A stretch of 64,000 nt of DNA from an uncultured Solirubrobacteraceae bacterium (GTDB lineage Bacteria; Actinomycetota; Thermoleophilia; Solirubrobacterales; Solirubrobacteraceae): the NCBI GenBank assembly GCA_963766105.1, contig CAVXYO010000001.1:10619-74618 (forward strand), read 5' to 3'. The notes beneath the pieces were generated by a model. The model was not told the origin of the DNA. It saw only the letters and a list, made by a program, of their open reading frames with translations, and made no database searches. The translations under genes were made by a program, and so were the position numbers. This document shows positions 19,763-38,915 of the stretch, piece after piece. Positions within the stretch are counted from its first letter, which is position 1; each line of letters opens with the position of its first letter.

Positions 19763-20977
19763 ATGGCTACGGCAGCGGTCGATCGATCGAACACGCGCAG
19801 CAAGGTGCCGAGAACCTCGCGCGCCACGATCGAGCGCGAAGCGTTCGCGGCATTTCCCTACGGCCTGCTGGTGCTCGACCGCGACGGCAGGGTCCTCTGC
19901 CAGAATCGCGAGGCAGCTCGCCTGATCGAGGTCGCGGGGGGCCGCAAGGCGGGGCTGTCGTGCTGCACGTTGCTGGGATGCCGGGCGGCCGGAAGCGTGC
20001 TCGCGGGAGTGTGCGTGACCGAGCTGGCAATCACCCGCCGCGAGACGCTGCCGGAGGTGCGCGTCGACCTGCCCGGCCCGGCGGGGCCGATCGCGACGTG
20101 GGTGACCGCCGCGGCGATCGACGACGAGCTCGGCGCCAGGGTCTTGCTGCAGTTGCGTCCCGGCGTAGCCAACGACCGGCGACGCCGGACGACGCCGCAC
20201 TGGATGACCGGGCCGCGCCTGCGTGTCCAGAGCCTCGGCCGTACGGTCGTCGAATCGGCGGAGGGGCCGATTGCGGGAGCTTGGCTGGACCAGCGCACCG
20301 GGCAGCTGTTGAAGTTCCTCGTAGCCGAGCGCCAGCGCGCTGTGCCGACGGAGGAGATCGGCGAGAACCTCTGGCCCGGCGCCGACTACGCCGTCGGTGG
20401 CAGCGTCCGCTACTACATACACGCGCTGCGCCGCAAGATCGAACCGCAGCGAGGCAGCCGCGCGCCCTCCGCTTTCATCGTCTCGCGCGCCGGCAGCTAC
20501 CGGCTGAACCTCGACCAGGTGCAGGTCGACGCCGACGACTTCGAGGAGCACGTGAACGCCGGCCTGCGTGTGCTCGATGCCGACCCGGGAACGGCAGCGG
20601 CGGCGATCGAGCGGGGTCTCGCCGTCTACCGCGGTGACTTCCTCGCCGACCTTCCCTACGCCGAGTGGGCGATGCTCGAGCGACACCGCTTGCACGATCT
20701 GGCGTGCACCGCGCTGCGCGCGCTCGCCCGCCTGCATCTGCAGCGGGCCGCGGTCGACGAGGCCGTCGGCTGCCTGGAGCGACTGACCCGCTTGCAGCCC
20801 TATGACGAAGACGTGCACCGCCGTTTGATGGAACTGGACATCGCCCAGGGACGCCGCAGCGATGCGGTGCGACGTTATGAGGTGCTGCGTTCTAGGATTC
20901 GCCGCACGTTCGGCCATGACCTGGACTTCACACCTGCCGACCTCGCACCGCTCACACCGCCGGCCACGCGCCCCTGA
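19763..20977 (+). CDS. SARP-like transcriptional regulator (PAS-like + winged HTH + BTAD)
   Basis: ATG 19763 after GGAGA. PYGLLVLDRDGRVLCQNREAARL (PAS-like), LLKFLV...EEIGENLWP...YIHALRRKIEP (wHTH), YRGDFLADLPY.EW and QPYDEDVHRRLM (BTAD). Confidence 0.85.
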   Translation: MATAAVDRSNTRSKVPRTSRATIEREAFAAFPYGLLVLDRDGRVLCQNREAARLIEVAGGRKAGLSCCTLLGCRAAGSVLAGVCVTELAITRRETLPEVRVDLPGPAGPIATWVTAAAIDDELGARVLLQLRPGVANDRRRRTTPHWMTGPRLRVQSLGRTVVESAEGPIAGAWLDQRTGQLLKFLVAERQRAVPTEEIGENLWPGADYAVGGSVRYYIHALRRKIEPQRGSRAPSAFIVSRAGSYRLNLDQVQVDADDFEEHVNAGLRVLDADPGTAAAAIERGLAVYRGDFLADLPYAEWAMLERHRLHDLACTALRALARLHLQRAAVDEAVGCLERLTRLQPYDEDVHRRLMELDIAQGRRSDAVRRYEVLRSRIRRTFGHDLDFTPADLAPLTPPATRP

Positions 20978-21323: not shown

Positions 21324-21968
21324 CTAGCTTCCCGGCCCGGCCGCCGTCGCGGGCGCCGCTCCGCGTTCTCTCAGGTCGGCCGTCAGAGCCCGCCTGCCGC
21401 GGTGGTGCAGCCCATGCACGGAGCCCTCCGAGCGCCCGGTGCGCTCGGCGATCTCGGTCGGCGACAGGCCGGCGAGATGACGCAGCACGAGCACTTCGCG
21501 CTGCTCGCACGGCAGCGTCGAGAGCGCCTCTCGCAGGTCGTTGAGGCGCGTCGCGCCCGCCGGGTCGCCGCCGCCTTCGTCGCTGGTCCTGATGTCTTCG
21601 ACCGGGACGGGGCGGGGGCGGCGCACGTAGTCGAGCGCGACGTTTCGCGACACGCGCAGAACCCAGGCGAGGAAGGGCACCTCGCGCTCCTCGTACTTGC
21701 CGATCACGTGCATCAACTTGGCGAACACGTGCTGTGTGATGTCCTCGGCGTCGTGCGGATCGTGGACGATGCTGCGCACGTAGCCGTACACGTTGTCCGC
21801 GTAGCGTGCGTAGAGGAACCCCATCGCCGCGCGGTCGCCTTGCTGGGCGCGCTTGACCGCGCGCGAGACCATTCGCCTGGCCGCGAGCTCGTCCTCGCCG
21901 AGTGCCTTGGGCTCGGGCGACCTACGGGCGGCGCTTCGCTGCCCCGTTGTCCCGGTCGCGACCCTCAC
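21324..21968 (-). CDS. ECF-type RNA polymerase sigma-70 factor
   Basis: Region 2 LYARYADNVYGYV...DAEDITQHVF...WVLRVSRN. Region 4 LPCEQREVLVLRHLAGLSPTEIAE..GRSEGSV. Start at GTG 21968 or 22010. Confidence 0.9.
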   Translation of the reverse strand: MRVATGTTGQRSAARRSPEPKALGEDELAARRMVSRAVKRAQQGDRAAMGFLYARYADNVYGYVRSIVHDPHDAEDITQHVFAKLMHVIGKYEEREVPFLAWVLRVSRNVALDYVRRPRPVPVEDIRTSDEGGGDPAGATRLNDLREALSTLPCEQREVLVLRHLAGLSPTEIAERTGRSEGSVHGLHHRGRRALTADLRERGAAPATAAGPGS

Positions 21969-22204
21969 GACGCAAACCGCGCTGTTGTACCGACTATCCC
22001 CGTAACCCACCGCATCGCTTGTCTCCTCCTTGGTCTGACGTCTCCTCTAGTCCACGAGGAGAAGCAAAGCGAGCGTTTGTTGTGAGGCGGTTTACAAGTG
22101 CGTTTGATTACTGTTAGAAGACCGAAATAGCGGTGTTCCGAGCATGAAAACGCACAAATCGTCTAGTTCATGCTTTTAGTGCAATTTGTGAAGTACGCCA
22201 ATTC

Positions 22205-25200
22205 TCAGCGCACCTTGACGGTCGCCTTCGCGCCGATGTTGCCGGCCTCGTCGACCGCCTGCAGCGACAGCTGACGGGCGCCCGCCGGCAGCGAAACTTC
22301 GCGGCTGAATGCGCTGCCGCCTGCAACGGGCGCGCCGATACCGATCCCGGCCGGCTTGTTGTTGACCTTTGTCAGATAGGAGCTCGGGGTGCCGCACGCG
22401 CCGTCGTCGCCGGGAGCGGTGAACGTGAGGCGATATTTGCCGCCGCCGAGTGACGCGAGCGCCACGTTCGCGGGAGCGTTCGGCGGCGTGCCGTCGTGGT
22501 CGTAGTTGCCACTGCTCTGCTGGTCGTGGCGGAAGCTCGGCCACTGGCTCTGGCAGGCGGGCGCCTGCGTCTGCCACTCGAACAGGTAGCCCTCGCGCGT
22601 GAGATCGGCCATGCGCCCGTCGGCGGCGAGCGCGGGTGGCGCGTACAGCCAGCCGCCGGTCTGCTTGGGGAAGCCCGGGATGTCCCGGCCGGTTGCGCCG
22701 TCGTAGGCGTGCAGGAGCCCCAGCCCGGTGCCGCCGACCACCTGGCTCGTCGGCAGCGTCGGATCGAGTTTGGCGACGTTGTTCGCCGACAAGAGCTGGT
22801 AGTCGTCGGTGACCGTCGGGAACGCGGGCAGCGTCACGCCGGTCGCGCCGTCGAAGGCGCCGATCAGATGGTTGTAGGGGAAGTTCTGACCGACCAGCAG
22901 CAGGTTGGCGGCCTGGCTGAGCGACAGCTCGTACTTGACCACGTCCGGCGTGCCGGTGCCGAGCAGGTCGCCGATCGACGCCGACTCGAACAGGTTGATC
23001 GCGCCCGACCGGTCGGTCGCATCGGACGCCGCCCCGAACGCCTCCGGGCCGACCTGCTGCAGCGTGCGCACGACCTGGCCGGCGGGGCTGAGCTCCTCCA
23101 GCGAGCCGCCGGTCGCCGAAGCGACGATCACCGTCTGCCCGCCGATCTTGACGATCGAGGCGTCCTGACCGGGGCCGATGAAGGGCAGCGTGTCCTGGAT
23201 GATCCCCGGCATCGCGACCGGCCAGCCGGCGAGCAGTTTGCCGCTCGCGCCATCGACTGCATACAGGCGTCCGCTGGTGCCAGCCGCGGCGGAGGTGACG
23301 CCGGCGAAGCTCACGTCGCCGCTGTTGCTCACCGCGCCGTACACCTCGTTGCTCGCCACGACGACGTCGTCGTGGCCGGAGTTGGTCAGGTCGGCGATTG
23401 CCGGCTCGTTGATCGACTCGGCGACCATCGCTTTGCCGGCGGCAGCTTCGACCGGGTCGACGAGCGCCACCGGGTACCCCTTGACGGGCTTGCCGTTCGC
23501 GCGCCAGGCGTACAGATGCCCGTCGAGGCTCGGCTCGACGATGTCCGGCTTGGCGGAGAAGCCTTCCAGGTGAGCGATCGCCGGCGTCGCCAAGAAGCCG
23601 CACTTCGGATGGCTGCTGTCGGTCTCCAGCGCCGGCGCGCAGAACGCAGGGTTGGCCGAAACGGGGAAGTGGGCGACGGGCTTGCCGTTGGCGTGCCACG
23701 CATACAGATGTGTGCCGGCCGCGGTGATCACGTCGGCGCTGCCGTTGCCGGCGAGGTCGGCGATCACTGGCCCGCGCGGAGCCTCGCGCGGCAGCCCCAG
23801 CGCCGCCAGCGCGGGGGAGCCCGAGTGACCGAGCGCCGACTGCTGCACTTCGGTCTGCACCGGCCAGCCCTTCAGCTCGCTGCCGTCCGGCTCATACGCG
23901 TGCACCTTGCCGTCCTCGCTGGGGACGATCAGCTCCTGGACGTTGTCGCCGTTGAGATCGGCGTAGCGCGTCGGCGCCTCGCCGCCCGAGCCGATCCGCT
24001 TGGGATAGCCGGGCTTCAGCGTGGGGTCGGTGAAGGTCGTGAACACGCGGCGGTCGATGCCGGTCATGGCGATTCCAGGCCCGCTGACCTCCAGCTGCAC
24101 GGTGAACTGCTTTTCAAACGGATTGGCGCCGCCGGCGGCGAACGTCGGGCCGCCTGCGTCCGGCGGCACCACGTAGCTCGCCAGCGCGCTGCGAACGGCG
24201 TTGAGGTCGATCGAGCCGAAGTCGGTGACGGTGCCGTTGGAGTCGCCTTCGCGCACGGTCGACCACGTCGACGGCGTCTCGCCGGCGCCCCACATGAGCT
24301 TCCAGTGCAGCTGGGTGCCGGCCGTGAAGCGCGCCCGCGCAAGCCCTTCGATCTCGGTGCTCGATCCGGTCAGCGGCGCGTACCAGTCCGGCGAGTCGAT
24401 TGCGGCCTCCGGCGGGATGTTCCCGGCGGCGACCGCCCCGACGGCCGCGCCGATGTCGGCGCGTCCCCAGCCGAAGTGAGGCGACCACTGCTCGTCGCTC
24501 GGCAGCGTCGCGTCGGCGCCCGGGTCGGCGACACCGGCCCCTTCGGTGTTCGCGCCGAGCACGCGCTCGGCCGTCTGCTCGAGCAGCTCACGCGTCTCGT
24601 CGGGGCGCAGCGAGATCCCGTGGTCGAGGCCCGCGCTGACGACCAGCGCCGCGGCGCCGGAGGCCTTGCTCGTGTTGACCGAGCCTGTCGGCCCCTCCAT
24701 CGCGATCGAGCTCTTGCCGCCGTACTGCGTCGTGTTGGCGCCGCGGAAGAAGGTGCCGACGGGCACGTTCGAGCCGAGGCACGCCGGCTGACCGGCGAGC
24801 CCGCACAGTTTCTGCGCCTGCACCCACTGGCTCGATTCTTCGCCGAGGCCGACGCTGTCGGGCACCGTGCCCTGGATCAACATCGCGTGCCCGTAGTTGG
24901 CCGGGTAGTTGTGGTCGCCGGTGTTCAGGTCGTCGCCGGAGAACGTCTGCACGACGCCGTGGTCGTAGGCGTACTGCGAGGCCGCCTCGGCGAACGCCGA
25001 GTGATACAGGCTCCCGTTCGCGCCCTCGATCACCTTCGCGCCGTTGTCGGTCGCGTAGGTGATCCCCAGTGCGAAGTCGTTGGCATCGGAGACGAACGTG
25101 TCCCAGGTGCGTACGGGCATGACCTGGCAGTGCGGGCAGACGCCGATCGATCCCTGGCCGTCGTTGCCCTGCTCGACCGCGTCGACGGCGCGCCCGGTCC

Positions 25201-26029
25201 CGTGGTGGTGTGCAGCGAAGTAGCTGGAGGTGTCCGTCGGGTCGTTGGTGTTGTCGAAGAAGTTCCAGCCGGCGATGTCGTTTGCATAACCGTTGCCGTC
25301 ATTGTCGAAATGCCCGCCGGCCGGACACTGCACGATCAGGTGGCTGTCGCCGTCGATCTGGCAGTTGCCGAAGACGTGCAGCAGATCCTGTGCGGTGATC
25401 AGCGAGGCCGGCCCGGTGCGCCCCGTGTAGGAAAGGCTCACGCGCGGGTCTTGTGCGTAGTCGTCGACGTTGACCACGCCGTTGCCGTCGCAGTCGTAGG
25501 CTGCGCACGAGGAGCCGTCGGCACGCTCGGGATAGGGGAGCTCGCCTGTGCTCAGGTGAATCTGATCGCGCAGCCCGCGCTCGCTCCAATCGAAGCCGTC
25601 GTCGAGGATCGCGATCACCGCGTCGGCTCGCCCGCGCTCGCCCTTCCACGCGCCCGCCGCGTTGAAGCCGGCGACCATCGGCTTGCCGGCGTGCGGGCCG
25701 GCTTTGTAGATCGCGTTCGGCGTCAGCTGCGAGGGGAACCCGAACAGGTCGAAGCGCTCGGCGTAGAAGTTCGATGAGCGATTGGCTTCGGGTTGCTGGG
25801 TGTCGGGCTCTGCCTGGTCGTAGGCCGGGTCGTTGGGCGTGTCCTGGCGCTGCACGCTGCCGTAGGTGAACTGCTGGGCGGTTTCCGCCGAGCAGGGGTT
25901 CTCAAAGCCGCCGCAGCTCGACGCGCTTGCGCCGCCCGCAGGAAGCGCTCCCAACAAGACCAGCGCGCACGCTGCCACCAGCGATCGCGCGAAGGCGCGC
26001 AGCCCGCGCCGAGTCCCCTCCCGTTTCAC
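22205..26029 (-). CDS. Secreted subtilase-family (S8-like) protein with FG-GAP/beta-propeller repeats and a C-terminal Fn3-like domain (paralog 1)
   Basis: Signal peptide, GGAGG RBS, ILDDG (Asp), HHGTG (His), TGSVNT (Ser), Ca-loop DNDGNGYANDIAGWNF, repeated ADLNGD..E / GWPV motifs. Confidence 0.85.
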   Translation of the reverse strand: MKREGTRRGLRAFARSLVAACALVLLGALPAGGASASSCGGFENPCSAETAQQFTYGSVQRQDTPNDPAYDQAEPDTQQPEANRSSNFYAERFDLFGFPSQLTPNAIYKAGPHAGKPMVAGFNAAGAWKGERGRADAVIAILDDGFDWSERGLRDQIHLSTGELPYPERADGSSCAAYDCDGNGVVNVDDYAQDPRVSLSYTGRTGPASLITAQDLLHVFGNCQIDGDSHLIVQCPAGGHFDNDGNGYANDIAGWNFFDNTNDPTDTSSYFAAHHHGTGRAVDAVEQGNDGQGSIGVCPHCQVMPVRTWDTFVSDANDFALGITYATDNGAKVIEGANGSLYHSAFAEAASQYAYDHGVVQTFSGDDLNTGDHNYPANYGHAMLIQGTVPDSVGLGEESSQWVQAQKLCGLAGQPACLGSNVPVGTFFRGANTTQYGGKSSIAMEGPTGSVNTSKASGAAALVVSAGLDHGISLRPDETRELLEQTAERVLGANTEGAGVADPGADATLPSDEQWSPHFGWGRADIGAAVGAVAAGNIPPEAAIDSPDWYAPLTGSSTEIEGLARARFTAGTQLHWKLMWGAGETPSTWSTVREGDSNGTVTDFGSIDLNAVRSALASYVVPPDAGGPTFAAGGANPFEKQFTVQLEVSGPGIAMTGIDRRVFTTFTDPTLKPGYPKRIGSGGEAPTRYADLNGDNVQELIVPSEDGKVHAYEPDGSELKGWPVQTEVQQSALGHSGSPALAALGLPREAPRGPVIADLAGNGSADVITAAGTHLYAWHANGKPVAHFPVSANPAFCAPALETDSSHPKCGFLATPAIAHLEGFSAKPDIVEPSLDGHLYAWRANGKPVKGYPVALVDPVEAAAGKAMVAESINEPAIADLTNSGHDDVVVASNEVYGAVSNSGDVSFAGVTSAAAGTSGRLYAVDGASGKLLAGWPVAMPGIIQDTLPFIGPGQDASIVKIGGQTVIVASATGGSLEELSPAGQVVRTLQQVGPEAFGAASDATDRSGAINLFESASIGDLLGTGTPDVVKYELSLSQAANLLLVGQNFPYNHLIGAFDGATGVTLPAFPTVTDDYQLLSANNVAKLDPTLPTSQVVGGTGLGLLHAYDGATGRDIPGFPKQTGGWLYAPPALAADGRMADLTREGYLFEWQTQAPACQSQWPSFRHDQQSSGNYDHDGTPPNAPANVALASLGGGKYRLTFTAPGDDGACGTPSSYLTKVNNKPAGIGIGAPVAGGSAFSREVSLPAGARQLSLQAVDEAGNIGAKATVKVR

Positions 26030-26163
26030 ATCAACCTCCCTTTCTGCCGCGAGCCTCTCACACGTCTTCTACGTGCGTCAAGAGTTAAAATTGAGTTGTT
26101 GCAATGTGCACCGCGCCCCGGTGAACTCCTCGTCCTAGGCCGCCGCCGGGACGCCACGCGCAC

Positions 26164-27441
26164 TCACTCGCCGGCCGACTGTGTGGGCACAACGCCCTGC
26201 TGTGGCGCCAGCCCCTGCATCAGGCGCGTCGCGGTGATCAGGTCGAGCAGGTCCGGCAGCAGGTGCGGGTTCAGGCCCGTGTGCTCGGCCACGCGCTGGA
26301 GGCGGTAGAGCACGGTGTTGCGGTGCACGAACAGCGCGGCCGCGGCTCGGCTGGCGTTGAGGTCGCAGGCTGCGTACTCGCCGATCGTCGCGATCAGCTG
26401 ACCGTGCTTGGCGAGGTCGTCGGCGATGAACGCGCGCACGCGATCGGGCACCAAACGCCGCGGTGTGGCGCCGGTCGTGAGCATCACCGTCAGCCGGTCG
26501 ACGAGCGAGGCGTGTGCGAGCGTCAGCGTGTTGCCCGGCCCCGCCGCACCGGCTGCCGCACTCGCCTCGCGATAGGCCTCGCGTACCTGCTCGGGTCCGC
26601 GAGCGGGCAGCCCCACGCCGAGCGCCGGATCGCAGCCGAGCTTGGTCGTCGACAGGCGCATCTCCTGCGCGATCAGCGCGCTGATCGCCAGCGGATCGTC
26701 ATGCGCGAGGGCGACCAGTGCGATCAGGTCGTCGTCGCGTACGTGCACCGCGCTGGCGCGCACGTGGCGTACGTCGCTCAGATGGCGCGACGAGGTCCGC
26801 AGTGCCGCCGCGGCGCGATCGGGAAAGCCGTGCAGGACCATCACCAGGTATGTCTCCTCGGGGCCGACGGGGAAGTTCCCCGCTTGCAGGCGAACGCCCT
26901 CGGAGGTGACGCGCCCGTCGATCATCGCCTCCACCAGGCGGCTCTGCCCACGGTCGAGATCTGCCGCCAGCCGTCGCTCGGCGCGGATGTAGCTCTTGGC
27001 AACCTCCGACCATGCGGCCTCGATGTAGCGCATCATCGGCAGCGCCAGCGAGGCCATCACGTCCTCGCCCGCGCCGACGCGATCGCTCGCCTGTTCGATG
27101 ATCTCCGACAGCACACGGTGGCCCACGCGATAGGCATCGAGGATCTGCTCGGCGGGTATTCCCTGGTCGATGCGCCGCGCCACGGTCACGCGTATGAACG
27201 GCAGCCCCTCCGGCCCCGGCGCGGCCCCGCTGCGCGCGCATTGCACGAACGCGCCGATGTGCTCGGAGACCTGCTCGCCGATTTCCTGTGCGAGCGTTGA
27301 GTCGGGGCTGGTGGCGTATGCCGGCAGCTCGGAGAGGATCGAATCGGTCGCCGTCCGCACGAATTCCTCGCGCTGCTCGACGAGGATCTCCAGCACACGT
27401 TCCTGCGCTTCGTTCAGGACAGCGCGAGCGGCGATGTTCAC
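26164..27441 (-). CDS. PucR/CdaR family transcriptional regulator
   Basis: N-terminal RsbRD_N-like helical region (ILDAYRVG) and C-terminal HTH CDLNASRAAAALFVHRNTVLYRLQRV..TG. GTG start at 27441. Confidence 0.9.
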   Translation of the reverse strand: MNIAARAVLNEAQERVLEILVEQREEFVRTATDSILSELPAYATSPDSTLAQEIGEQVSEHIGAFVQCARSGAAPGPEGLPFIRVTVARRIDQGIPAEQILDAYRVGHRVLSEIIEQASDRVGAGEDVMASLALPMMRYIEAAWSEVAKSYIRAERRLAADLDRGQSRLVEAMIDGRVTSEGVRLQAGNFPVGPEETYLVMVLHGFPDRAAAALRTSSRHLSDVRHVRASAVHVRDDDLIALVALAHDDPLAISALIAQEMRLSTTKLGCDPALGVGLPARGPEQVREAYREASAAAGAAGPGNTLTLAHASLVDRLTVMLTTGATPRRLVPDRVRAFIADDLAKHGQLIATIGEYAACDLNASRAAAALFVHRNTVLYRLQRVAEHTGLNPHLLPDLLDLITATRLMQGLAPQQGVVPTQSAGE

Positions 27442-27505
27442 ACCGCCCAAATCTCGAGATCGCAAAGCATGACCGGGCATTACCCCGCACGCGAGGTTCT
27501 CATTC

Positions 27506-27520
27506 TGTGCAACTCGCACA
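27506..27520. promoter_or_regulatory. Candidate PucR/CdaR operator
   Basis: TGTGC-AACTC-GCACA palindrome between the divergent pucR and acylase genes. Confidence 0.55.
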
Positions 27521-27664
27521 AAGGCGCTGACGAAAGTCAGTGCGCGTCAGACAGGTTGGCGATCGGCGGCGCGGGTAATCACGACAACGGCGGGATACAG
27601 AGCGAGCGAGGGGAATGCAGTGACGGCCAAGGGTGGGAGTGCAGTGCGCGCCGGGCGCGAGTGG

Positions 27665-30452
27665 ATGGGGACGAGGTTCCGCGCCGGCGCGCCTGCGTTG
27701 TGGGGGCGCGTGGCGGTGCTGGCGACCGCCTGTGTGCTGGCCAGCGGCGTCACGGCTTCGAGTGCCGCCGCAGAAGTCGCACCACAGCCATACGCGACCA
27801 ACGACGCCGGCGGCTTTCGCAATGTGCTGCCGGCCGGCGAGAACGGGCTGGACAACGCACAGCAGCTCGCCGAATTCCAGCTCAACGGCACCTACCCACC
27901 GCACTTCACCGACCAGCTCCCGCTGTACGCCAACCTGCTTCACGCCTCGCCGACATTGACGCACGAGCAGATCGGCGACTACTTCAAGGACGCCACGTTC
28001 GGCGTCAAGGAAGGCGACCTCGCTTCGACGCTGAGCCCGCGCGCCGACGTGACGATCGAGCGCGACAAGGGCTTTGGCATACCCCACGTCTACGGCAGCT
28101 CTCGCGCCGGCGTGATGTTCGGCGCGGGGTATGCCGGCGCGCAGGACCGCCTGTTCCTGATGGACGTGCTGCGGCACACGGCGAAAGCGGAACTGTCCTC
28201 CTTCGTCGGCGGCTCGGCGGGTAATCGCGCGATGGATCAGGTGCAGTGGACGATCGCGCCGTACACGCAGGCCGATCTGCAGTCCCAGCTGGACAACGCG
28301 CCGACGCTTTACGGCGCCAAAGGCACGCAGGTCGTCGAAGACGTGCGCGAATTCTGCGCCGGCATCAACGCCTACATCGCCGAAGCGCGGCTGGACCCGA
28401 ACAAGCTTCCGGCCGAGTACGCGGCGCTCGGCAAGCTGCCCGAAGAATGGCAGCCGACAGACGTGATCGCCGAGGCCTCGCTGATCGGCGGCATCTTCGG
28501 CAAGGGCGGCGGCGCGGAGGTGCGCTCGGCGCTCACGCTGGAGTCCTTCGAAGCGAAGTTCGGCAAGACGGCCGGACGCAAGGCGTGGAAGGACTTCCGC
28601 GAGCAGAACGACCCCGAGGCGCCGACCACGGTGTCCAAGTCGTTCCCCTACGAGACCGGCTCGCCCTTCGCCAAGAACGGCCTGGCGATGCCCGACCCAG
28701 GTTCGGTCAGCTTCGTCCAGGACGGCTCGTCGGCGGCTCCAGCGCCGAGCGGCGCGGCGGTCAGCGACACACCCGACCCGGTGGCGATCCCCAGCGACGG
28801 ATCGATCGGCGCGGGCTTCCTGCACGACGCGGTCGCCGGCCCGGCGCTGATGTCCAACTGGGAGCTCGTCAACGCCAAGCACTCGACCAACGGTCACGCG
28901 ATCGCGGTGATGGGCCCGCAGGTCGGCTACTACAACCCGCAGATCCTCATGGAGGAGGACCTGCACGGCCCGGGCATCGACGCACGCGGAGCCTCTTTCC
29001 CGGGGGTCAACCTGTACGTCGAGCTCGGCCACGGGCGCGACTACGCGTGGAGCGCGACGACCGCCACCGCGGACAACGTCGACACGTTCGCAGAGGTGCT
29101 CTGCCAGGACGAATTCCACTACCTGTACAAGGGCGAATGTCTGCCCATGGAAAAGCTGGAACGGACGAACACATGGACGCCTAACGGCTCTGACCAGACG
29201 CCGCCGGGCTCGGAAACGCTGACCGTTTACCGCACGGTTCACGGCATCGTCTACGCGCGCGGCACCGTCAAGGGCCGGCAGGTCGCCTTCGCAAGCGCGC
29301 GCAGCACGTACTTCCACGAGGCCGACTCGGCGATCGGCTTCTCCGAGTTCAACGAACCGGGCTTCGTCACGAGCCCGCAGCAGTTCCAGCGTGGCCGCGT
29401 CGAACGTCAACTTCGGTTTCAACTGGTCCTACGTCGACGCCAACCACATCGCCTACTACCTCTCCGGCTGGTACCCGCAGCGAGCTGCCAAGACCTCGCC
29501 CGACTTCCCGGTCCTCGGCACCGGCGAATACGACTGGCAGGGCTTTGAACCGAAATTGCACATCAGCGAACGCATCCCCTTCGAAGCGCACCCCAACGCG
29601 CTGGACCCCACGTTCCTCGTCTCGTGGAACAACAAGCAGGCACCGCGCTTCTCCGCCGCCGACGACAAGTACTCCTTCGGCTCGGTCTACCGCATGCAGC
29701 TGATCCGCAACTTCATCGAAGCGGATCTGGCGGGGGGCAGGAAGATGGAACCCGCCCAGCTCGTGAGCGCGATGGACGAGGCCGCCACGCAGGACATCCG
29801 CAGCGTTCAGCTGTGGCCGATCCTCAAGCAGGCGCTCGGCAGCCCGAGCGATCCGCAGTTGCAGGACGCGATCGCCAAGCTCGACGCGTGGTACGCCGAC
29901 GGCGGCCACCGCCGCGACCTGAACAACACGAGCATCTCCAGCCCCGGCACCTACCAGCACAACGAAGCGATCACGATCATGGACGCGTGGTGGCCGAAAC
30001 TGCTCGAAGCGGAGTTCCGCCCGGCGCTCGGCGAAGCGGCTTTCGGCGAACTGCACGGCATGCTCGAATTCGGCCAGCCCAACCCGGGCGGGGAACCGAC
30101 CGCCCCCGATTTCGCCGACGGCTGGTACGGCTACGTCAGCAAGGACCTGCGCGACCTGCTGTCGGCAAACGGCGAAGGCTCCAAGCCCAGAGGTGCCTAC
30201 TCGCAGACCTACTGCGGCAACGGCTCGCTGCAAGCCTGCCGCCAGGCGCTGCAGAGCTCGCTGGCGCAAGCGCTCAGCGTCACGCCACAGCAGATCTACG
30301 GACACGGCGAATGCGCCGAAAACCCCCAGGCCAGCTGCTTTGACATGAACCGCTTCGTCAGCGCCAGTGGCATCTCGCTGCCGCCCTTCCCCTTCCAGAA
30401 CCGCCCGACCTTCCAGCAGGTCGTGGAACTGACGACGACGGTCGCCCACTGA
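27665..30452 (+). CDS. Penicillin acylase family (peptidase S45, Ntn hydrolase), secreted; apparent +1 frameshift at ~29393
   Basis: Signal peptide, GIPHVYG, FGAGYAGAQDRLFLMD, beta-chain start SNWELV...GPQVG. Continues in a second frame as FNWSYVD..HIAY..SG.YP.R and WNNK. Deleting one G restores QRAASNVNF. Confidence 0.88.
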
Positions 30453-33400
30453 TGCGTCGCTTGGCCGGCCGATTCCTCGTCCCGGCGCTGCTGGTCATCG
30501 CCTTCGCGACGCTCCCCGGCCAGGCGCAAGCGGCCTTCCCCTACTACGGAACGGGCAGCCCGGGCGAACCGGCGAGCTGGCGGCTCGCGCCGGGAGAAGT
30601 CCCCAGCAACCTCAACGGCCTGGGGTGGAAGTTCGCTGCGACGCCGGCGACGCCGTCGGCGACCAACCCCGCCGAAGCGCTGCTGACGCAGAAGAACAAC
30701 TCACAGACCGACGAGCTGTGCGGCGTGACCGGAATGAGCCTCGTCGACGCGCGCGCGACGATGCCGGCGGGCACCGGATCGTGCATCGCCGCCGGCACGC
30801 CGACGCACACGGCGTTCACCCTGAGCGTCGGGCGCCCCGACGTGTCGATCGGCGAGCTCGACTCGGGCATCGAGTGGAACAACGCCGGCGACATGTCCAG
30901 CCTGCGCGCGAAGGTGATGCTCAACGTCGGCGAGCTGCCTGCGCCGCGGACCGATCTGAGTTCGACGTTCGACCCCTCCACGCATGCCAATTGCGCCACC
31001 GCGCGTGCAGCGACCGGTGGCGACTACGACGTGCACGGTGCGATGCCCGGTGGCAAACCCGGCGGGACCGGGCCGATCCCCTACGACGTGCTCGAACAGG
31101 GCGTGTTCAACGTGCTCGACTACGCGTGCGACTCGCGCGTGGCCAACGTCGTCGAGAACTACCCGAAGTGCACAAACCCGCCGACGACGCGCGATTGCCG
31201 CAACGGGCCGGCGGGGATGCTCACGCCCGAGGATCTGATCATCGCCTTCTCCGACGGGGTGGACCACGACGGCAACGGCTACGTCAACGACATCGCCGGC
31301 TGGAACTTCGTCGACAACGACAACGATGCCTACGACGAGGTGCAGTACGGCCACGGCACCGGCGAGGACGAGGACTCCACGGCCGAAGCGAACAACAGCG
31401 CCGGCGACACCGGCACGTGCCCCAACTGCGAGGTGCTGCCGCTGCGCGTCGGCGAGTCCTTCGTCGCCGAGGCAAACCGCTTCGGCGAGGCGACGATCTA
31501 CGCGACAGACCGCGGCGTGGACATCGTGCAGGAGGCGCTCGGCTCGCTCAACGACCCCGTTTTCGCGCGCGAAGCGATCGACTACGCCTACGACCACGGC
31601 GTCGCCGTGATCGCCTCGGCGGCAGACGAGGCGGCAGAGCACCACAACCAGCCCGGCGCGCTGCCGCATACGATCGTCGTCAACGCCGTCGAAGGCCCCG
31701 CGAGCCTCGGCGGCGTGCCCGTGACGAACGTCCCGCCGTCCTATTTGCAGCTCGACGGCTGCACGAACTTCGGCACGCGCATCGACGTATCGGTGCCGGC
31801 CACGTCGTGCTCCTCGGAGGCGACGGGCAAGAGCTCGGGCGTCGTCGGGCTGATCTACAGCGCCGCGCTGAACGCCTGCGGCGCGGGGCTGTACGGCGAA
31901 TGCTCCGGCGGCTCGCAGGCCAAGCTCAAACCCGCCAAGAACTGCACGCGCGTCGATGGCTCGCCGTGCCCGATCACCGCCGACGAGGTGCGCCAGCTGA
32001 TGGCCTCGGGCAACATCGAAGGCACCGCCGTCGACGGCTCCTCGACGCTGGGGAGCAATCCGCCGAGCGCCGGCAAAGCGCCCGCCGACCGCGGCGAAGG
32101 CGGCCAGGCCGACGACGTCGACACGGCCGCCGCGCCGGAAAGCGCGTGCAGCGTGGGCATGGCGCCGACGTGCACCGACCCCAACCTCAACTCGACGTTC
32201 GCCGCCGACGAGAACGGCGGCACGATCGGGCCGCTGCCCGATACCTCGCGCTACCCGTCGCGCAAGGGCTGGGACGAGTTCTTCGGCTACGGGCGCCTGG
32301 ACGCCTACAAGTCGGTCGACGCCGCGGCGGAAGGGTGGATCCCGCCCGAAGCGGACATCACCTCGCCCGAATGGTTCCAGCAAATGGACCCAGGACAGGA
32401 ATCTTTCGCGCTCGACGGCTCGGTCGACGCGCGCACCAAATACACCTGCCGCGTGGAAGCGGCGCCCGGCGCGCAGCCCAACAACGCACCGACGTCCTCC
32501 AGCGGCGACTTCGCCGCCGTCCCGTCGAGCTACTGCGACGGCGCGACCGTGCACGCCAAAGCATTCAGCGGGCTGCTCGCGACCGTGAGCACGGCGACGC
32601 TCGCGGCGATGTTCCCCAAAGGCGCCCCGACGTCGTTCACCGGCAACGAGAACGGCGGCACCGCGCAGAGCTCCAACGGCCGCCCCAACACGCTGCCCTA
32701 CGCGTTCACCGTGCGCGTCGTCGTGACCACCGCCCCGGGCGTGCCGGGCCCGGCGATGACCGGCCAGGACCGCCGCCAGCTGTTCCTGCACCGCGACGCG
32801 GACATGCTCAAAGGCTTTCCGCTGGAGATGAAAGGCGACGGCGACGCCAGCCCGGTGCTCGCCGACCTCGCCGGCGAAGACGCCAATCAGCTGATCGTCG
32901 CCAACTCGGACGGCTGGATCCACGCCTACCGGTACGGCCCCGCCGGCGGGACGCTCGAAGACCTTCCAGGCTGGCCCGTGCACACCGACGCGCTGCCGCT
33001 GCACGGCGGCGAGCACGCCTTCAGCGGCGGCGGGCTGACGACTGCGCACTACGACCCGGTGATCGAGGCTCCCGCGGTCGGCGACCTCTCCGGCGACGGC
33101 GAACTGGACGTCGTCGCCGACGATGTGCAGGGCAACGTCTACGCGTGGAACGCCAAGGGCGAACGGATCTTCCACGAGACGTCGGACCCGGCCTACTCCG
33201 GCGCGCCGCTGCCGGGCGACCCTGCCTGGGAGGCGCAACGCGCCGGCGTGCGCGAGCGCACGGAGGCCGGCTTCGTCACCTCGCCGGTGCTCGCCGACCT
33301 GGAACCGCAGAACGGCTCCGGCCTGGACATCGTCGCCGCAGGCGAGGATCGCCACGTCTACGCCTGGCACCCCCACGGCGAAGCCGTCAAAGGCTTCCCC

Positions 33401-35608
33401 GTGCTCGTCGAGGATCCCGGCAAGGTCGCGTCCGTCGATCCCACCAGCAACCAGCCGACGTTCAATGCCAACGTCCCTGCCAACCAAGACAAATCCGAAG
33501 ACCAGGGCAAGATCGTCGACACGCCCGCGATCGCCCAGCTCGACGGGCCGGGCAGGCCGCCGAGCATCATCGTCGGAACCAACGAGGAGTACCTCGCCAA
33601 CACCGGCAACGAAGGCGAACTCAATGCCAGCGGCGTCAACACCGCGTCGCTCGGCGTGGTCGGCGCGTCGGGACTGCTCAGCTTCGCCAACGGCCGCGTG
33701 TACGCGATCGACGCAAACGGCTGCTCGGCCGATCCGTCCTCGTGCGCGACCGGAGGCCTGAAATGCGCCGGCTCGAAATGCAGCTCGAGCGCCTTCCGCG
33801 AAGGCTGGCCGGCGAAGATCGGGATCATCGACGCGGGCCTGCTGCCGGACGTAGGCGAGGGCATCAACGGCTCGCCGGTGGTCGCCCCCGTGCTCTGCTC
33901 CGAAGGCGGCGAAGGGCTGAAGGTCGGCGTCACGCCCGACGCAGGGCCCGGCTACGTGCTCAACGCCGATGGCACGTCCTGCTACGGCTCGGCCAACGGG
34001 CAGGACAACGCGCTGCAGACCGACGCCAGCGCGAGCACGAGCAAAACCGACACGCCCACGTTCCCGACCGTCGGCGAGCCGGCATTCGGCACGCTCGACG
34101 GGACGACGACGAGCATGTTCGCCCCGACCGCAGGATTGCTGCGCGCGCTGGACGTCGTCGCGCCGGACTACCAGAAGGGCAGCCAGGACTTCATCGCCGG
34201 CTGGAACGCCAACTCCGGGCAGTTCTCGCCGGGCTTCCCGGCGGTCGACAACGACCTGTCGTTCATCACCGGCGAGACGGTTGGCGACGTGACCGGCGAA
34301 GCGCCCAAACAGGAGGTCGTCGCGGGAACCGCGTCGCAGGACCTGCAGGCCTACAACAGCGCGGGGGCGCCCGCCAGTGGCGCATGGCCGAAGCTCACCG
34401 GCGGCTGGACGGTCGCCACGCCGACGCTCGGCTCGCTGGGCACGATCGACACCGCGTCGAGTGCCAAGAAGGACGTCGTGTCGATCACGCGCGAAGGGAC
34501 CGTCTCGGTGTACACGACCCCGGCGGCGGCCTGCTCGCCGAGCTCATGGCCGAACTTCCACCATGACATCGCCAACTCGGGCGACTACACGCGCGACGCC
34601 GTGCCGCCCGGCAAGCCGCTGAACACGAGCGTCTCCGAAAACACGCTGCACTTCACAGCGCCGGGCGACGACCTGCTGTGCGGCAAAGCGACGCGCTATG
34701 AAATCGTCACCGCCGAAAGCCCCGTCACCGCCGAGAGCTTCGCGAGCGCGACGCCGCTGTCCGGCGCGCCCGAACCGGCTGCGGCGGGCACCGCTCAGAC
34801 CTACGCGCTGCCGGCCGGCGTCGAGACCTACGTGGCGATCCGCGCGGTCGACGACCAGGGCAACGTCGGCCTGCCCGCCTCGGCGGAATACAACCCCGGC
34901 GCGCCGCTGCCCGCGCTCGGGCGCTGCGTGAAGGCGGCTGTGAAGAAAACGGGCGAATGGCGCGGCGCGCACTGCGTCGGCTTCGCGCACGGCAAAGGCG
35001 CCGACAACTTCCTGCCTGGGCCGGGCGCCGCCAACAAGTTCACCGGGCATCTCGGCGCCGTCACGCTGGAAACGGTCGGCCAGGCGAAGATCGCGTGCAG
35101 CTCGGGCTCGGCGCAGGGCGAATACACGGGCTCGAAGACGCTCGCGGCCACGATCACGCTGGCGGGCTGCGAACGCCCGAGCACCCACGAGCCCTGCCAA
35201 AGCGTCGGCGGAGCCTCCGGGCAGATCGCCACGAACGCGCTGGAAGGCGAATACGGCTTCATCTCGAGCGCCAGGAAGCTCTCGGTCGGCCTGGACCTCA
35301 GGCACGAACCGGCGCTCGCGACCTTCGAATGCACGACGGCGGCGCTGCCCGGCAAAGAACTCGTCAACCTCGAAGGATCGGTGATCGGCTCGATCAAGAA
35401 GTTCGACTCGATGGTCTCGGCCTTCACGGTCACGTACAAGGCGACGGCGGGCAAGCAGCTTCCCGAAGCGTTCGAAGGCGCCGCCAAAGACACGCTCGTC
35501 ACCTCGGTCGTCGGCGGCAGCGCCGAACAGACGGGCCTCACCGCCACGCTCACGCTGACCAACGAAGAACGCTTGGAGATCAAAGCCAAGACGCGGGGCG
35601 GCAAATAG
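30452..35608 (+). CDS. Large secreted subtilase-family (S8-like) protein with FG-GAP repeats, Fn3-like domain and extra C-terminal beta domain (paralog 2)
   Basis: Signal peptide, ELDSG, GHGTG, CSSEATG, DHDGNGYVNDIAGWNF, repeated ADL.GDG.LDVV and GWPV/GFPV. ATG overlaps the acylase stop. Confidence 0.85.
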   Translation: MRRLAGRFLVPALLVIAFATLPGQAQAAFPYYGTGSPGEPASWRLAPGEVPSNLNGLGWKFAATPATPSATNPAEALLTQKNNSQTDELCGVTGMSLVDARATMPAGTGSCIAAGTPTHTAFTLSVGRPDVSIGELDSGIEWNNAGDMSSLRAKVMLNVGELPAPRTDLSSTFDPSTHANCATARAATGGDYDVHGAMPGGKPGGTGPIPYDVLEQGVFNVLDYACDSRVANVVENYPKCTNPPTTRDCRNGPAGMLTPEDLIIAFSDGVDHDGNGYVNDIAGWNFVDNDNDAYDEVQYGHGTGEDEDSTAEANNSAGDTGTCPNCEVLPLRVGESFVAEANRFGEATIYATDRGVDIVQEALGSLNDPVFAREAIDYAYDHGVAVIASAADEAAEHHNQPGALPHTIVVNAVEGPASLGGVPVTNVPPSYLQLDGCTNFGTRIDVSVPATSCSSEATGKSSGVVGLIYSAALNACGAGLYGECSGGSQAKLKPAKNCTRVDGSPCPITADEVRQLMASGNIEGTAVDGSSTLGSNPPSAGKAPADRGEGGQADDVDTAAAPESACSVGMAPTCTDPNLNSTFAADENGGTIGPLPDTSRYPSRKGWDEFFGYGRLDAYKSVDAAAEGWIPPEADITSPEWFQQMDPGQESFALDGSVDARTKYTCRVEAAPGAQPNNAPTSSSGDFAAVPSSYCDGATVHAKAFSGLLATVSTATLAAMFPKGAPTSFTGNENGGTAQSSNGRPNTLPYAFTVRVVVTTAPGVPGPAMTGQDRRQLFLHRDADMLKGFPLEMKGDGDASPVLADLAGEDANQLIVANSDGWIHAYRYGPAGGTLEDLPGWPVHTDALPLHGGEHAFSGGGLTTAHYDPVIEAPAVGDLSGDGELDVVADDVQGNVYAWNAKGERIFHETSDPAYSGAPLPGDPAWEAQRAGVRERTEAGFVTSPVLADLEPQNGSGLDIVAAGEDRHVYAWHPHGEAVKGFPVLVEDPGKVASVDPTSNQPTFNANVPANQDKSEDQGKIVDTPAIAQLDGPGRPPSIIVGTNEEYLANTGNEGELNASGVNTASLGVVGASGLLSFANGRVYAIDANGCSADPSSCATGGLKCAGSKCSSSAFREGWPAKIGIIDAGLLPDVGEGINGSPVVAPVLCSEGGEGLKVGVTPDAGPGYVLNADGTSCYGSANGQDNALQTDASASTSKTDTPTFPTVGEPAFGTLDGTTTSMFAPTAGLLRALDVVAPDYQKGSQDFIAGWNANSGQFSPGFPAVDNDLSFITGETVGDVTGEAPKQEVVAGTASQDLQAYNSAGAPASGAWPKLTGGWTVATPTLGSLGTIDTASSAKKDVVSITREGTVSVYTTPAAACSPSSWPNFHHDIANSGDYTRDAVPPGKPLNTSVSENTLHFTAPGDDLLCGKATRYEIVTAESPVTAESFASATPLSGAPEPAAAGTAQTYALPAGVETYVAIRAVDDQGNVGLPASAEYNPGAPLPALGRCVKAAVKKTGEWRGAHCVGFAHGKGADNFLPGPGAANKFTGHLGAVTLETVGQAKIACSSGSAQGEYTGSKTLAATITLAGCERPSTHEPCQSVGGASGQIATNALEGEYGFISSARKLSVGLDLRHEPALATFECTTAALPGKELVNLEGSVIGSIKKFDSMVSAFTVTYKATAGKQLPEAFEGAAKDTLVTSVVGGSAEQTGLTATLTLTNEERLEIKAKTRGGK

Positions 35609-35658
35609 CGCCAGGCGCTCGCGTCCGAGCGCACGCCGCTGAAGGCTAAGGTGCCGCC

Positions 35659-36096
35659 ATGGAGTCGCCGGTCAGCCTGCCGGTCGCGCGCGAGATCTCC
35701 CTCGAGCAGACGCGCGAGCTGCGCCGGTCGATCCTGCGCCCGCACGAGTCGCTCGAGGAGATGGCCGCCGGCGAGGCCGACGGCGCCTACGCCGCCGGCG
35801 TGTTCGACGGTGCGAAGCTGATCGCGGTCGGCCTGATCGCGCCGAGTCCCGAGCGCGGCGGATGGCGCGTGCGCGGGATGGCGACGGCTGCCGATGCGCG
35901 CAGCCGCGGCGCGGGCGGCGCCGTGCTGCAGGAGCTGCTGGCCCACGCACGTGCACGCGGAGCGTCGCGCGTGTGGTGCAACGCGCGCACGCCCGCGCGG
36001 CGCTTCTACGAGCGCGCCGGGTTCGGCGTCTGCTCGGAGGTGTTCGAGATCGCGCCGATCGGCCCGCACGTCGTGATGGAACGCGCGCTGGCCTGA
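35659..36096 (+). CDS. GNAT family N-acetyltransferase
   Basis: WRVRGMAT....RSRGAG, VWCNAR..A..FYERAGF. Leaderless -10 TAAGGT 6 nt upstream. Confidence 0.9.
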   Translation: MESPVSLPVAREISLEQTRELRRSILRPHESLEEMAAGEADGAYAAGVFDGAKLIAVGLIAPSPERGGWRVRGMATAADARSRGAGGAVLQELLAHARARGASRVWCNARTPARRFYERAGFGVCSEVFEIAPIGPHVVMERALA

Positions 36097-36107
36097 ACGG
36101 GCGAGAC

Positions 36108-36134
36108 TCAACCCTCCCGCTGTGCAGCCGATAA
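36108..36134 (+). promoter_or_regulatory. Sigma-28 (FliA/WhiG/SigD-type) promoter
   Basis: TCAA(36108-36111)-N15-GCCGATAA(36127-36134), against consensus TAAA-N15-GCCGATAA. ATG follows 6 nt later. Confidence 0.75.
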
Positions 36135-36140
36135 GCGAAC

Positions 36141-37304
36141 ATGGCTCCGCAGCGAGGATCTTTCGATGCCCGGGACGCCCCGACGAGGCGCGTGGCCGGG
36201 CTGCTCTATCTGATCGGGTGCGTGACGACGGTCGTCGCGATCGTGCTGCCCCACTCGCCGCAGGCGGATCTGACTGCGTTCGCGCTGCTCGCGGTCGCAA
36301 TGGCGGCAGTCGCGGCGCTGCTGCTCGCCTATCCGCGAGCGCTGCCGCAGAGGACCTGCGAGGCGGTGATGTTCCTCGGCACGGCGATCGTCTCGCTGAC
36401 GCTGTACTTCAACGGCGAGCGCCACGGAGGCCCGTCGGCCGACAACGAGGTGCTGTATCTGTGGATCGCGCTGTACGCCGGCTACTTCTTCACGCGCGCG
36501 CAGATGATCTGCCAGCTGTTCGTGCTCGCGGCGTGCTACGCGGGCGCTCTCGTCGCCATCGCTCCCGGGCAGGTGGGCTTCACGCGCTGGCTGATAACGG
36601 TCGGCATGGTCTCCACGGCCGCCGGCGTCGTGCACGTTCTCAAGCTGCACAACGAGCGCCTCGTGGCGAGGCTGTCGGCGGCCGTGCGAACGGACTCGCT
36701 GACCGGGCTGATCAATCGCCTGGGCTTCGACGAATCGCTGACGCGCGAGCTGGCGCACGCGGGCAGGACGGGCCGTCCGCTGGCGCTGATCATCGCCGAC
36801 ATCGACGACTTCAAGGGGCTCAACGACGAGCTCGGTCATCCGGCCGGCGACGCTGCGCTGAGGGCATTCGGCACGACGGCGACCGCCGTCGCGCGAGCGA
36901 CCGACACGATGTCGCGGATCGGCGGCGACGAGTTCGCGGCGATCCTTCCCGAAACAGATGCCGGCGGCGCATTCGAGTTCGCCGAGCGATTGCGCCTTGC
37001 GATCGGCGACCTGGAGGCGGAGCTCGGCTTGCGGCTGACGATGAGCGTCGGCGTGGTCGCGGCGCAGCTTCCCGGCGCCACGCCGGAGGCGCTGATCCGA
37101 GCGGCGGATCGCGCGCTCTACGAGGCCAAGCGCCTGGGACGCGACCAGAGCGTGCTCGTCGACGGCGACACGCAGCAGCCGGCACCGCAGCTTCCGCGTT
37201 CCGGCGCGCCACGCGCGCCGCGCGCAGGGCAAGCGCCCGCGCCGCGAGTCCTTCACGACGCGATCGGCGAGAGGTTCGCGGGGTCGCGCGGCGGGCGGCG
37301 ATAG
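36141..37304 (+). CDS. Membrane-bound diguanylate cyclase (GGDEF)
   Basis: About 5-6 N-terminal TMs, TDSLTGLINR, DIDDFKGLNDELGHPAGD, RATD I-site, RIGGDEF, ADRALYEAK..GR. Confidence 0.93.
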   Translation: MAPQRGSFDARDAPTRRVAGLLYLIGCVTTVVAIVLPHSPQADLTAFALLAVAMAAVAALLLAYPRALPQRTCEAVMFLGTAIVSLTLYFNGERHGGPSADNEVLYLWIALYAGYFFTRAQMICQLFVLAACYAGALVAIAPGQVGFTRWLITVGMVSTAAGVVHVLKLHNERLVARLSAAVRTDSLTGLINRLGFDESLTRELAHAGRTGRPLALIIADIDDFKGLNDELGHPAGDAALRAFGTTATAVARATDTMSRIGGDEFAAILPETDAGGAFEFAERLRLAIGDLEAELGLRLTMSVGVVAAQLPGATPEALIRAADRALYEAKRLGRDQSVLVDGDTQQPAPQLPRSGAPRAPRAGQAPAPRVLHDAIGERFAGSRGGRR

Positions 37305-38875: not shown

Positions 38876-38915
38876 GGCGCGCGAACGTGGGCGTAGGGCG
38901 CCGATTGCCGTCTCC

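Follow-up and report, generated by a model that had tools for sequence, protein, structure and literature searches.

A lineage-variable cluster of giant secreted subtilases and a penicillin-acylase-type hydrolase in Solirubrobacteraceae, possibly acting on N-acylated peptides

What might two giant secreted subtilases and an acylase, encoded side by side around one regulator gene, do together outside a soil bacterium? The question is raised by a 64-kb stretch of DNA from an uncultured Solirubrobacteraceae bacterium (contig CAVXYO010000001.1; hereafter the window, whose positions are used for all coordinates unless a relative's locus is named). It carries genes for two subtilases, which we call S8A and S8B, for an acylase of the penicillin amidase family (S45), and for a PucR/CdaR-family regulator that lies between the two divergent arms (Table 1). 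Solirubrobacterales are common, nearly unstudied soil Actinomycetota, in which secreted subtilases of 1,300-1,800 aa are strongly conserved. The reading that we tentatively favour, without holding it to be firmly probable, is that the locus is a lineage-variable extracellular hydrolase cluster of Solirubrobacteraceae, in which the acylase and S8B would attack an N-acylated peptide-like substrate one after the other.

The association of the acylase with S8B carries this reading. Relatives' loci (L001-L081) were taken from Solirubrobacterales metagenome-assembled genomes (MAGs) and searched with the window proteins: 72 S8B-type loci with 10-kb flanks, one genome per species, and nine more through exact protein look-ups, in which the window's own S8B matched no record. 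Synteny was counted in the 54 loci where S8B is flanked by 3.5 kb or more on each side, taking an acylase, or a second kind of partner (X/Y, below), within 10 kb. An acylase was found near S8B in 17 of the 54 loci. When the loci were sorted by S8B identity, the acylase was present in 6 of 6 at 80% or more, 5 of 13 at 65-79%, 6 of 33 at 50-64%, and neither of the two below 50%. The original prediction held the acylase to be translationally coupled to the second giant. In the window, the acylase gene ends in a TGA that shares 1 nt with the S8B ATG (TGATG), and the same order occurs with a 1-nt overlap in L079, a 4-nt overlap in L002 and a 2-nt gap in L056. The order is inverted in L015, with S8B before the acylase and again a 4-nt overlap. 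The two genes are thus neighbours in several clades and in either order, often with stop/start overlaps. Since both adjacency and coupling survive inversion, inherited gene order alone is hard to credit. A link between the acylase and S8B beyond chance is well supported.

The regulator and S8A are attached to this pair in different ways. A PucR gene on the minus strand followed by an acylase-S8B unit on the other was seen in the window, L005, L056, L079 and L080. In L001, L004, L044, L046 and L052, a conserved 194-aa TetR gene lies between acylase and S8B, divergent from S8B, and the same TetR gene precedes S8B in L006, L068, L078 and L081. S8A is divergent from the acylase arm in the window, L005, L001 (where it is fragmented), L044, L046 and L052. 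It lies upstream of S8B on the opposite strand in L016, with the acylase not nearby, and in tandem behind S8B in L059 and L078. The stable core is regulator-acylase-S8B, and the four-gene, 13-kb version is specific to the lineage of the window and L005. The co-occurrence for which the original prediction proposed a synteny survey thus held for acylase and S8B, while the full four-gene set was found only in the window and L005. In L005, a block of five genes, including a GNAT acetyltransferase gene behind S8B, was kept while the flanking ECF (extracytoplasmic function) sigma factor, SARP, Wzz/Wzy, GGDEF and FTR1 genes of the window were absent. Identity between window and L005 was 87-91% for S8A, acylase and S8B, 80% for PucR, and 70% for GNAT. 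L079 retains the downstream side of the window (GNAT, GGDEF, ABM, ECH, PhzF) without S8A. GNAT follows S8B in L005 and L079 and not in L056 and L080; it is a peripheral member.

In the distant clade of S8B, with less than 65% identity, another gene takes the partner position. A gene for a secreted protein of about 670-730 aa, X/Y, directly adjoins S8B, on one side or the other, in 24 of the 35 loci of this clade; it is absent from the window. Five loci (L041, L055, L057, L066 and L071) have the order acylase-X-S8B, and stop/start overlaps were read in L066. The nearest family to X/Y is that of neutral/alkaline ceramidases (PF04734), by a weak match in the N-terminal domain: 8 of 20 members matched the N-terminal ceramidase model (best E=3.9e-6), and some database homologs of X/Y carry a precomputed PF04734 match. 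If this likeness holds, S8B would be paired with an N-acyl-amide hydrolase in 35 of the 54 loci. A weakly ceramidase-like secreted protein in the partner position in another clade lends indirect support to an acyl-amide as the substrate. Examples of X/Y, with an invariant H..E-S.PD motif, are at 8007-10013 in L066 and 14329-16521 in L003.

Are the encoded proteins what the reading needs them to be? As the G+C content of the window is about 70%, genes were recognised by their third-position GC content (GC3). By this measure the region has five genes, S8A, the PucR-type regulator, an acylase in two frames, S8B and GNAT, and the open reading frames (ORFs) of S8A, PucR and S8B had a coding-type GC3 of 0.84-0.91. 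The two giant exported ORFs described in the original prediction are both present, with 1274 aa and 1718 aa. S8A and S8B both belong to Peptidase_S8 (PF00082), with scores of 54.9 and 44.0 bits against a cut-off of 21.8. The order Asp, His, oxyanion Asn, Ser was read in the motifs LDDG/LDSG, HGTG, HN.P and GS..T.K.SG. In S8B, D137, H301, N399 and S454/S455 were invariant in 10 orthologs, and the catalytic columns were at least 90% conserved in 29 sequences from both paralog groups. Both giants therefore look like catalytically competent subtilases as far as sequence can tell. BLASTP matched S8A and S8B with 27% identity in some 1400 aligned columns (E=1e-106), which marks them as true, old paralogs. 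S8B has the architecture of S8A, with a longer insert in the S8 domain.

Export was judged by a simple hydropathy reading of N-termini, with no dedicated predictor. S8A, the acylase and S8B each begin with charged and then hydrophobic residues and an Ala-rich cleavage-like site, as expected from the predicted export of all three, and no further transmembrane (TM)-like segment; they have 15, 8 and 32 Cys, respectively. Such signal-like features were absent from PucR and GNAT. No sortase signal, lipobox or membrane anchor was visible in S8A, the acylase or S8B.

The nearest known systems to S8A and S8B are subtilases that carry C-terminal accessory domains; among solved subtilases, the closest by sequence were thermitase, Ak.1 protease and fervidolysin (1thm, 1dbi, 1r6v; E of 1e-9 to 1e-12). 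They are alike in the catalytic domain, the Asp-His-Ser order, the oxyanion Asn and secretion, but the alignment spans merely about 130-200 residues. Unlike the solved enzymes, S8A and S8B have an insert of 100-170 aa between Asp and His, no I9 propeptide detected in a Pfam scan, and about 700 extra residues that form a predicted beta-sandwich, an approximately 8-bladed FG-GAP propeller and an Fn3-like domain; no solved chain matched by sequence reaches these. NCBIfam has no model specific to the architecture. Two of its models were tried and rejected. The mycosin of the type VII secretion system (T7SS; TIGR03921) scored 44 bits against 278.75, and no T7SS domain was present among the window genes scanned. 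The M6-like inactivated metalloprotease dependent on the type IX secretion system (NF052323) scored 48.7 and 36.6 bits against 600, over a short FG-GAP-like stretch only.

The C-terminal part of S8A belongs to the FG-GAP/VCBS beta-propellers both by its repeat match, 29.9 bits for FG-GAP_3 with a cut-off of 26.9, and by its predicted fold. S8B alone is below this threshold (13.6-15.3 bits), yet it is homologous to S8A along its whole length. In an AlphaFold2 (AF2) model of S8A residues 560-1274 (715 residues; pLDDT 72, pTM 0.78), a beta-sandwich is followed by a propeller and a 7-strand tail. Foldseek with this model retrieved 8-bladed propellers, namely the designed Cake8 (TMt 0.79), BamB (0.71) and pyrroloquinoline quinone (PQQ) dehydrogenases; it found no enzyme-specific relative of this part, with propellers rather than subtilases as matches. 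The motifs W.F.HD..SG.Y..D..PP and TAPGDD are carried by both giants. The common architecture that the original prediction had read from the letters was thus borne out by the paralogy, the FG-GAP_3 match of S8A, the modelled propeller and these motifs.

S8B ends in a further Cys-rich, all-beta domain of about 243 aa with six invariant Cys, which is missing from "short-form" S8B orthologs. It had no Pfam match and no significant PDB fold match with Foldseek; OmpX/OmpA-like barrels came up at a TMt of about 0.5 and were rejected as homologs. The same domain was seen elsewhere, at L002 23796-24449, L017 23676-24329 and L022 4487-5161, and it also ends other giant secreted proteins, one of 1609 aa with fn3/TIG domains and one of 1604 aa with Big_13. 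Solirubrobacteraceae may share this domain of about 240 aa as a module for binding or for docking on the surface.

The acylase belongs to PF01804 (Penicil_amidase; cut-off 21.3 bits) by matches of 255.1 and 96.0 bits to consecutive parts of the profile. Among solved structures, penicillin G acylases are nearest to it (E about 1e-44). When the L005 acylase was aligned with 7reo, Gln23, Asn241 ("WNN") and Arg263, in the numbering of E. coli penicillin G acylase, were conserved. The alignment begins at beta residue 5, and Ser-beta1 was placed from the "SNW" directly before it. The nucleophile and oxyanion residues were also read in the window translation, and we take the protein to be, on sequence grounds, a divergent penicillin-G-acylase-type N-terminal nucleophile (Ntn) hydrolase with conserved catalytic residues. 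It resembles penicillin G acylase (7reo, 6nvy, 1gk9) in matching PF01804 over its whole length, in the alpha/spacer/beta layout and in its signal peptide. It differs in its low identity, in exceeding the solved chain by about 100-170 residues, in having Val in place of acyl-pocket beta-Phe24, and in its coupling to a subtilase gene, a pairing that we did not find described. Because of the change of beta-Phe24 to Val, the substrate need not be phenylacetyl-like. PvdQ, an acyl-homoserine-lactone acylase (NF051460), was ruled out as its identity (48.8 bits against 950).

In the window, this gene is split, another difference from the known enzymes. The family assigned to the roughly 930-aa acylase by the original prediction was right, but the protein is not encoded by one ORF: it exists only after repair of one base, because a 1-nt insertion divides it between two frames (ORFs 27620-29548 and 29391-30452, GC3 0.85 and 0.89). 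The extra base, near 29392 (CAGC[G]TGGCC), was missing from all 13 aligned relatives in blastn. Joined, the acylase has 943 aa. Its intact orthologs, of 923-943 aa, are each read from one ORF, so that an unbroken precursor that could autoprocess is found in the orthologs and not in the window. None of the public sequencing runs holds the window sequence (best word share 0.13).

The extra base is either an assembly error or a very recent inactivation. If the frameshift is real, the acylase would be a fresh pseudogene and the cluster would work, if at all, without a deacylase. The absence of the insertion from all 13 relatives, its site outside any long homopolymer and the likewise fragmented look of the S8A copy in L001 could be explained in this way. 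Nevertheless, both halves keep a GC3 of 0.85-0.89 and the conserved residues, so that inactivation would have to be very recent, and frameshift-like splits of these long genes in L022, L046, L054, L078 and L081 form the pattern that assembly indel errors would leave. Because both halves look fully coding and related MAGs have similar splits, we lean to an assembly error and consider a real frameshift rather unlikely. Long S8 genes were found broken across frames in these five loci and in L001, which suggests that indel errors are common in these MAG assemblies and that caution is needed before calling pseudogenes.

The regulator was assigned to the PucR/CdaR family by a C-terminal HTH_30 (PF13556; 54.7 bits) and GGDEF_2 (41.9 bits). 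B. subtilis PucR and E. coli CdaR likewise have a C-terminal HTH_30 and a GGDEF_2-like middle domain, and, as with these regulators, the gene is divergent from genes that it presumably controls. It matches named equivalogs weakly (Rv1453 family, 33 bits against 600; CdaR, 26 against 612). Its orthologs adjoin the acylase in L005, L056, L079 and L080 and also carry PucR-like_N and RsbRD_N. The longest ORF begins inside the GTGCnnnTTGCA motif described below. Since the relatives have 425-428 aa against 451, a later start is indicated, and the true start probably lies near 27441-27480, at M14 (27480) or V27 (27441).

A candidate operator could connect the regulator with both arms. The pattern GTGCNNNTTGCA had only two matches in the 64-kb window, both in promoter regions of the module. 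One match, GTGCGAGTTGCA, is in the PucR/acylase intergenic region, and the other, GTGCACATTGCA, is 70-81 nt upstream of the S8A start codon, a GTG preceded by a strong Shine-Dalgarno sequence, AAAGGGAGG. In all five loci with PucR (window, L005, L056, L079 and L080), GTGCnnnTTGCA stands between PucR and the acylase, and the window and L005 have it before S8A as well; six other matches were counted in 81 loci. The motif was missing from the regions upstream of S8A in loci without PucR. A second element next to the first, AAAGTCAGTGCGCGTCAGACAG in the window, follows the pattern AAAGTCnGTGC(n3-4)CAGACAG. In a set of 78 loci that did not include L079 and L080, this pattern was confined to L005 and L056, which were also the only ones there with PucR. 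An alignment of the conserved PucR/acylase intergenic region showed that the AAAGTCnGTGC half is kept in all five loci with PucR and that the CAGACAG half varies in L079 and L080. The distribution of GTGCnnnTTGCA across loci is consistent with one regulator for both arms in this lineage, and the regulator with a candidate operator that had been predicted between the arms was recovered in its two domains and a motif conserved over five loci.

Rfam, run over the window from end to end, returned no RNA family, which leaves no riboswitch to account for the conserved intergenic region. In 21900-36300, a sigma-70 scan found no promoter-like site, and terminator-like matches were at or below shuffle expectation. 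TTGnnn and GGGTA blocks in 27505-27580 are promoter-like by eye only.

From these elements, a possible course of events can be put together. A small-molecule-responsive regulator, PucR here and TetR in sister lineages, would switch on divergent promoters. The acylase and S8B would be co-translated and exported, and would meet an N-acylated peptide-like substrate such as a lipopeptide, a lipoprotein or another acyl-amide. The acylase, or X/Y in its place, would take off the acyl cap, and the subtilase would cut the peptide, with the propeller and Fn3 module possibly serving as a substrate-recognition platform. S8A would be an ancient paralog brought under the same control in this lineage.

Several observations weigh against this proposal. 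The acylase is frameshifted in the very window from which the proposal starts. S8A orthologs elsewhere are usually solitary, in unrelated contexts, and 19 of the 54 S8B loci had neither acylase nor X/Y within 10 kb, with unrelated housekeeping genes as neighbours. TetR in PucR's stead, in eight loci, speaks against a fixed four-gene set. The locus counts come from related MAGs, so that the events counted are not independent, and the GTGCnnnTTGCA motif was defined after its two window sites had been seen, which biases the window statistic. The ceramidase likeness of X/Y is also weak, as one member scored 15.9 bits against the Pfam cut-off of 32.1, below the threshold, and an X/Y profile search of PDB sequences gave nothing at E<=1.

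The strongest rival is that the genes encode generic nutrient-scavenging exoenzymes: broad proteases and an unrelated amide scavenger with no common substrate, together only through co-regulation of secreted catabolic genes or through inherited gene order. It could explain why S8B and S8A are often partnerless and why the regulators are interchangeable, and three tandem S8B copies in L081 and the size of the family (293 representative clusters at E<=1e-30) are typical of expanding exoenzyme families or in line with them. It does not easily explain why the adjacency of acylase and S8B and their start/stop overlap are retained when the order is inverted, or why another amidase-like partner is repeatedly met in the same place. 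Conservation is also unusually high for such enzymes (69-89% for S8A among the 120 best matches), and S8A, acylase and S8B are conserved above neighbouring genes. We consider scavenging somewhat unlikely as a full account, and if the linkage of acylase and S8B were merely inherited order, these would be ordinary exoenzymes.

The weakest rival, which we regard as improbable, makes S8A and S8B housekeeping processing proteases for the cell's own envelope or surface proteins, with the propeller, the Fn3 domain and the S8B C-terminal domain docking on the cell surface and the acylase association secondary; similar-length, strongly conserved orthologs of both paralogs in many Solirubrobacterales MAGs, the occurrence of the S8B C-terminal domain in other giant secreted proteins, the polysaccharide locus and ECF sigma gene that border the module in the window, and one ortholog labelled "cell wall-associated protease" by automatic annotation would fit it, but neither a sortase signal nor a lipobox or TM anchor is visible in the proteins, even L005 does not keep the envelope genes as neighbours, and divergent TetR or PucR control suggests inducible rather than constitutive expression. 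A link to an envelope locus through the ECF sigma, SARP and Wzz/Wzy neighbours was ruled out for the same lack of conserved flanks in L005.

Returning to sequential action of acylase and S8B, how widespread are the enzymes that it would involve? Among the 120 best matches for each, S8A orthologs were 69-89% and S8B orthologs 58-88% identical. Those with a named source were from MAGs of Solirubrobacterales/Solirubrobacteraceae (soil Thermoleophilia), and their source labels were "hypothetical protein", "Subtilase family" or "S8 family serine peptidase". A full HMMER scan that took the propeller and Fn3 part as its query matched 3391 representative proteins at E<=1e-3, and 293 met E<=1e-30, which makes the family populous in metagenomes; 60 of the 67 representatives of at least 1000 aa among the matches listed also had an S8 domain at the N-terminus. 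These counts and the shared S8 domain show that the S8/propeller architecture is a large uncharacterised family and no one-off. A look-up of the clusters of ten distant representatives returned almost no organism names, but a full-length relative, 35% identical, was found in L064 (Acidimicrobiaceae). At 9260-25430 of L081, a TetR gene is followed by three tandem S8B-type copies, one with a frameshift-like split; they are a local amplification of the family.

All parts of the cluster belong to known enzyme and regulator families. In searches of the literature on FG-GAP subtilases and on Solirubrobacter acylases and subtilisins, neither the architecture nor the gene pairing was found described, in agreement with the original prediction, which knew of no description; an older survey had paired FG-GAP only with a trypsin-family protease. 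As far as these searches show, three things appear to be undescribed: a large family in Thermoleophilia with the S8/beta-sandwich/8-blade FG-GAP propeller/Fn3 arrangement, the repeated coupling of this family to deacylase-type genes, and the PucR motif common to both arms. The recurrent coupling provides a testable hypothesis, sequential deacylation and proteolysis of acylated peptides, and with it candidates for enzymes that turn over lipopeptides or acyl-amides, quench quorum signals or inactivate antibiotics in soil.

A bolder version of sequential action, which we think unlikely as it stands, is that S8B subtilases and coupled N-acyl amidases constitute a hitherto unrecognised two-step extracellular system of abundant soil Thermoleophilia against acylated peptides or lipid-amides, induced through PucR or TetR as sensors of the substrate or product. 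Its substrates would be, for example, competitors' lipopeptide antibiotics, surfactants or signal molecules; the amidase would be of the S45 or ceramidase-like type, with both in some lineages, and S8A and S8B might form a heteromer. Soil actinomycetes hydrolyse lipopeptide antibiotics, as in the opening of the daptomycin ring by Ser-type esterases (PMC3324550, its ref. 37). The likeness of daptomycin inactivation to the cluster is a functional analogy only, among high-G+C Gram-positive soil bacteria, and it is a lead rather than evidence.

Table 1. Positions of the cluster's genes, domains and candidate regulatory sites in the window
Feature	Position	Strand	Basis or remark
S8A, secreted subtilase, 1274 aa	22205-26029	-	GC3 0.91; Peptidase_S8 54.9 bits; FG-GAP_3 29.9 bits; AF2 and Foldseek
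S8A, S8 domain	aa 136-522 = nt 24464-25624	-	
S8A, beta-sandwich, ~8-bladed propeller and Fn3-like tail	aa 560-1274 = nt 22208-24352	-	
GTGCACATTGCA, second motif copy	26100-26111	-	in 134-bp gap before S8A
PucR/CdaR-family regulator, longest ORF 451 aa	26164-27519	-	HTH_30 54.7 bits; GGDEF_2 41.9 bits; GC3 0.85
Conserved divergent regulatory region	27505-27580	.	five-locus alignment
GTGCGAGTTGCA, candidate motif	27508-27519	-	in PucR/acylase intergenic region
AAAGTCAGTGCGCGTCAGACAG = AAAGTCnGTGC(n3-4)CAGACAG	27533-27554		unique in window, 0 expected by chance
S45 acylase, N-terminal part, 591 codons	27620-29392	+	Penicil_amidase 255.1 bits, profile 1-335; signal-like N-terminus, alpha subunit, start of beta subunit with Ser-beta1 "SNW"
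1-nt insertion (+1 frameshift) in acylase	29391-29393	+	blastn; GC3 frame switch
Acylase, C-terminal part, 352 codons, other frame	29394-30452	+	Penicil_amidase 96.0 bits, profile 339-603; tblastn of joined protein
S8B, secreted S8A paralog, 1718 aa	30452-35608	+	GC3 0.91; Peptidase_S8 44.0 bits; catalytic residues
S8B, C-terminal extension, ~243 aa, Cys-rich all-beta	34877-35605 (residues 1476-1718)	+	AF2 pLDDT 84
GNAT acetyltransferase, no signal sequence	35659-36096	+	Acetyltransf_1 50.9 bits; 50 nt downstream of S8B

The surroundings of the cluster have features of their own. Directly downstream of S8A are an ECF sigma factor gene (21324-22010, -) and a gene for a SARP/BTAD-type regulator (19640-20977, +), neither of which is conserved beside S8A in relatives. 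Beyond them, a polysaccharide biosynthesis locus (2166-19468) encodes a GFO/IDH/MocA oxidoreductase, a Polysacc_synt flippase, NTP_transf_5 and GT28 proteins, a sulfotransferase (5082-5945), an asparagine synthase (11793-13709), a Wzy-type polymerase fused to a sulfotransferase (15926-18499, -) and Wzz (18515-19468, -), and it suggests a sulfated surface polysaccharide. Two ORFs within it, 5765-7051 (+, 428 aa) and 10056-11738 (+, 560 aa), have a coding-type GC3 and no Pfam match. On the other side of the cluster, an iron-uptake cluster (37253-40939), with genes for two FTR1-type permeases and one imelysin/cupredoxin protein, is an insertion by comparison with L079, in which GNAT-GGDEF leads on towards ABM-ECH-PhzF, located at 41571-43354 in the window.

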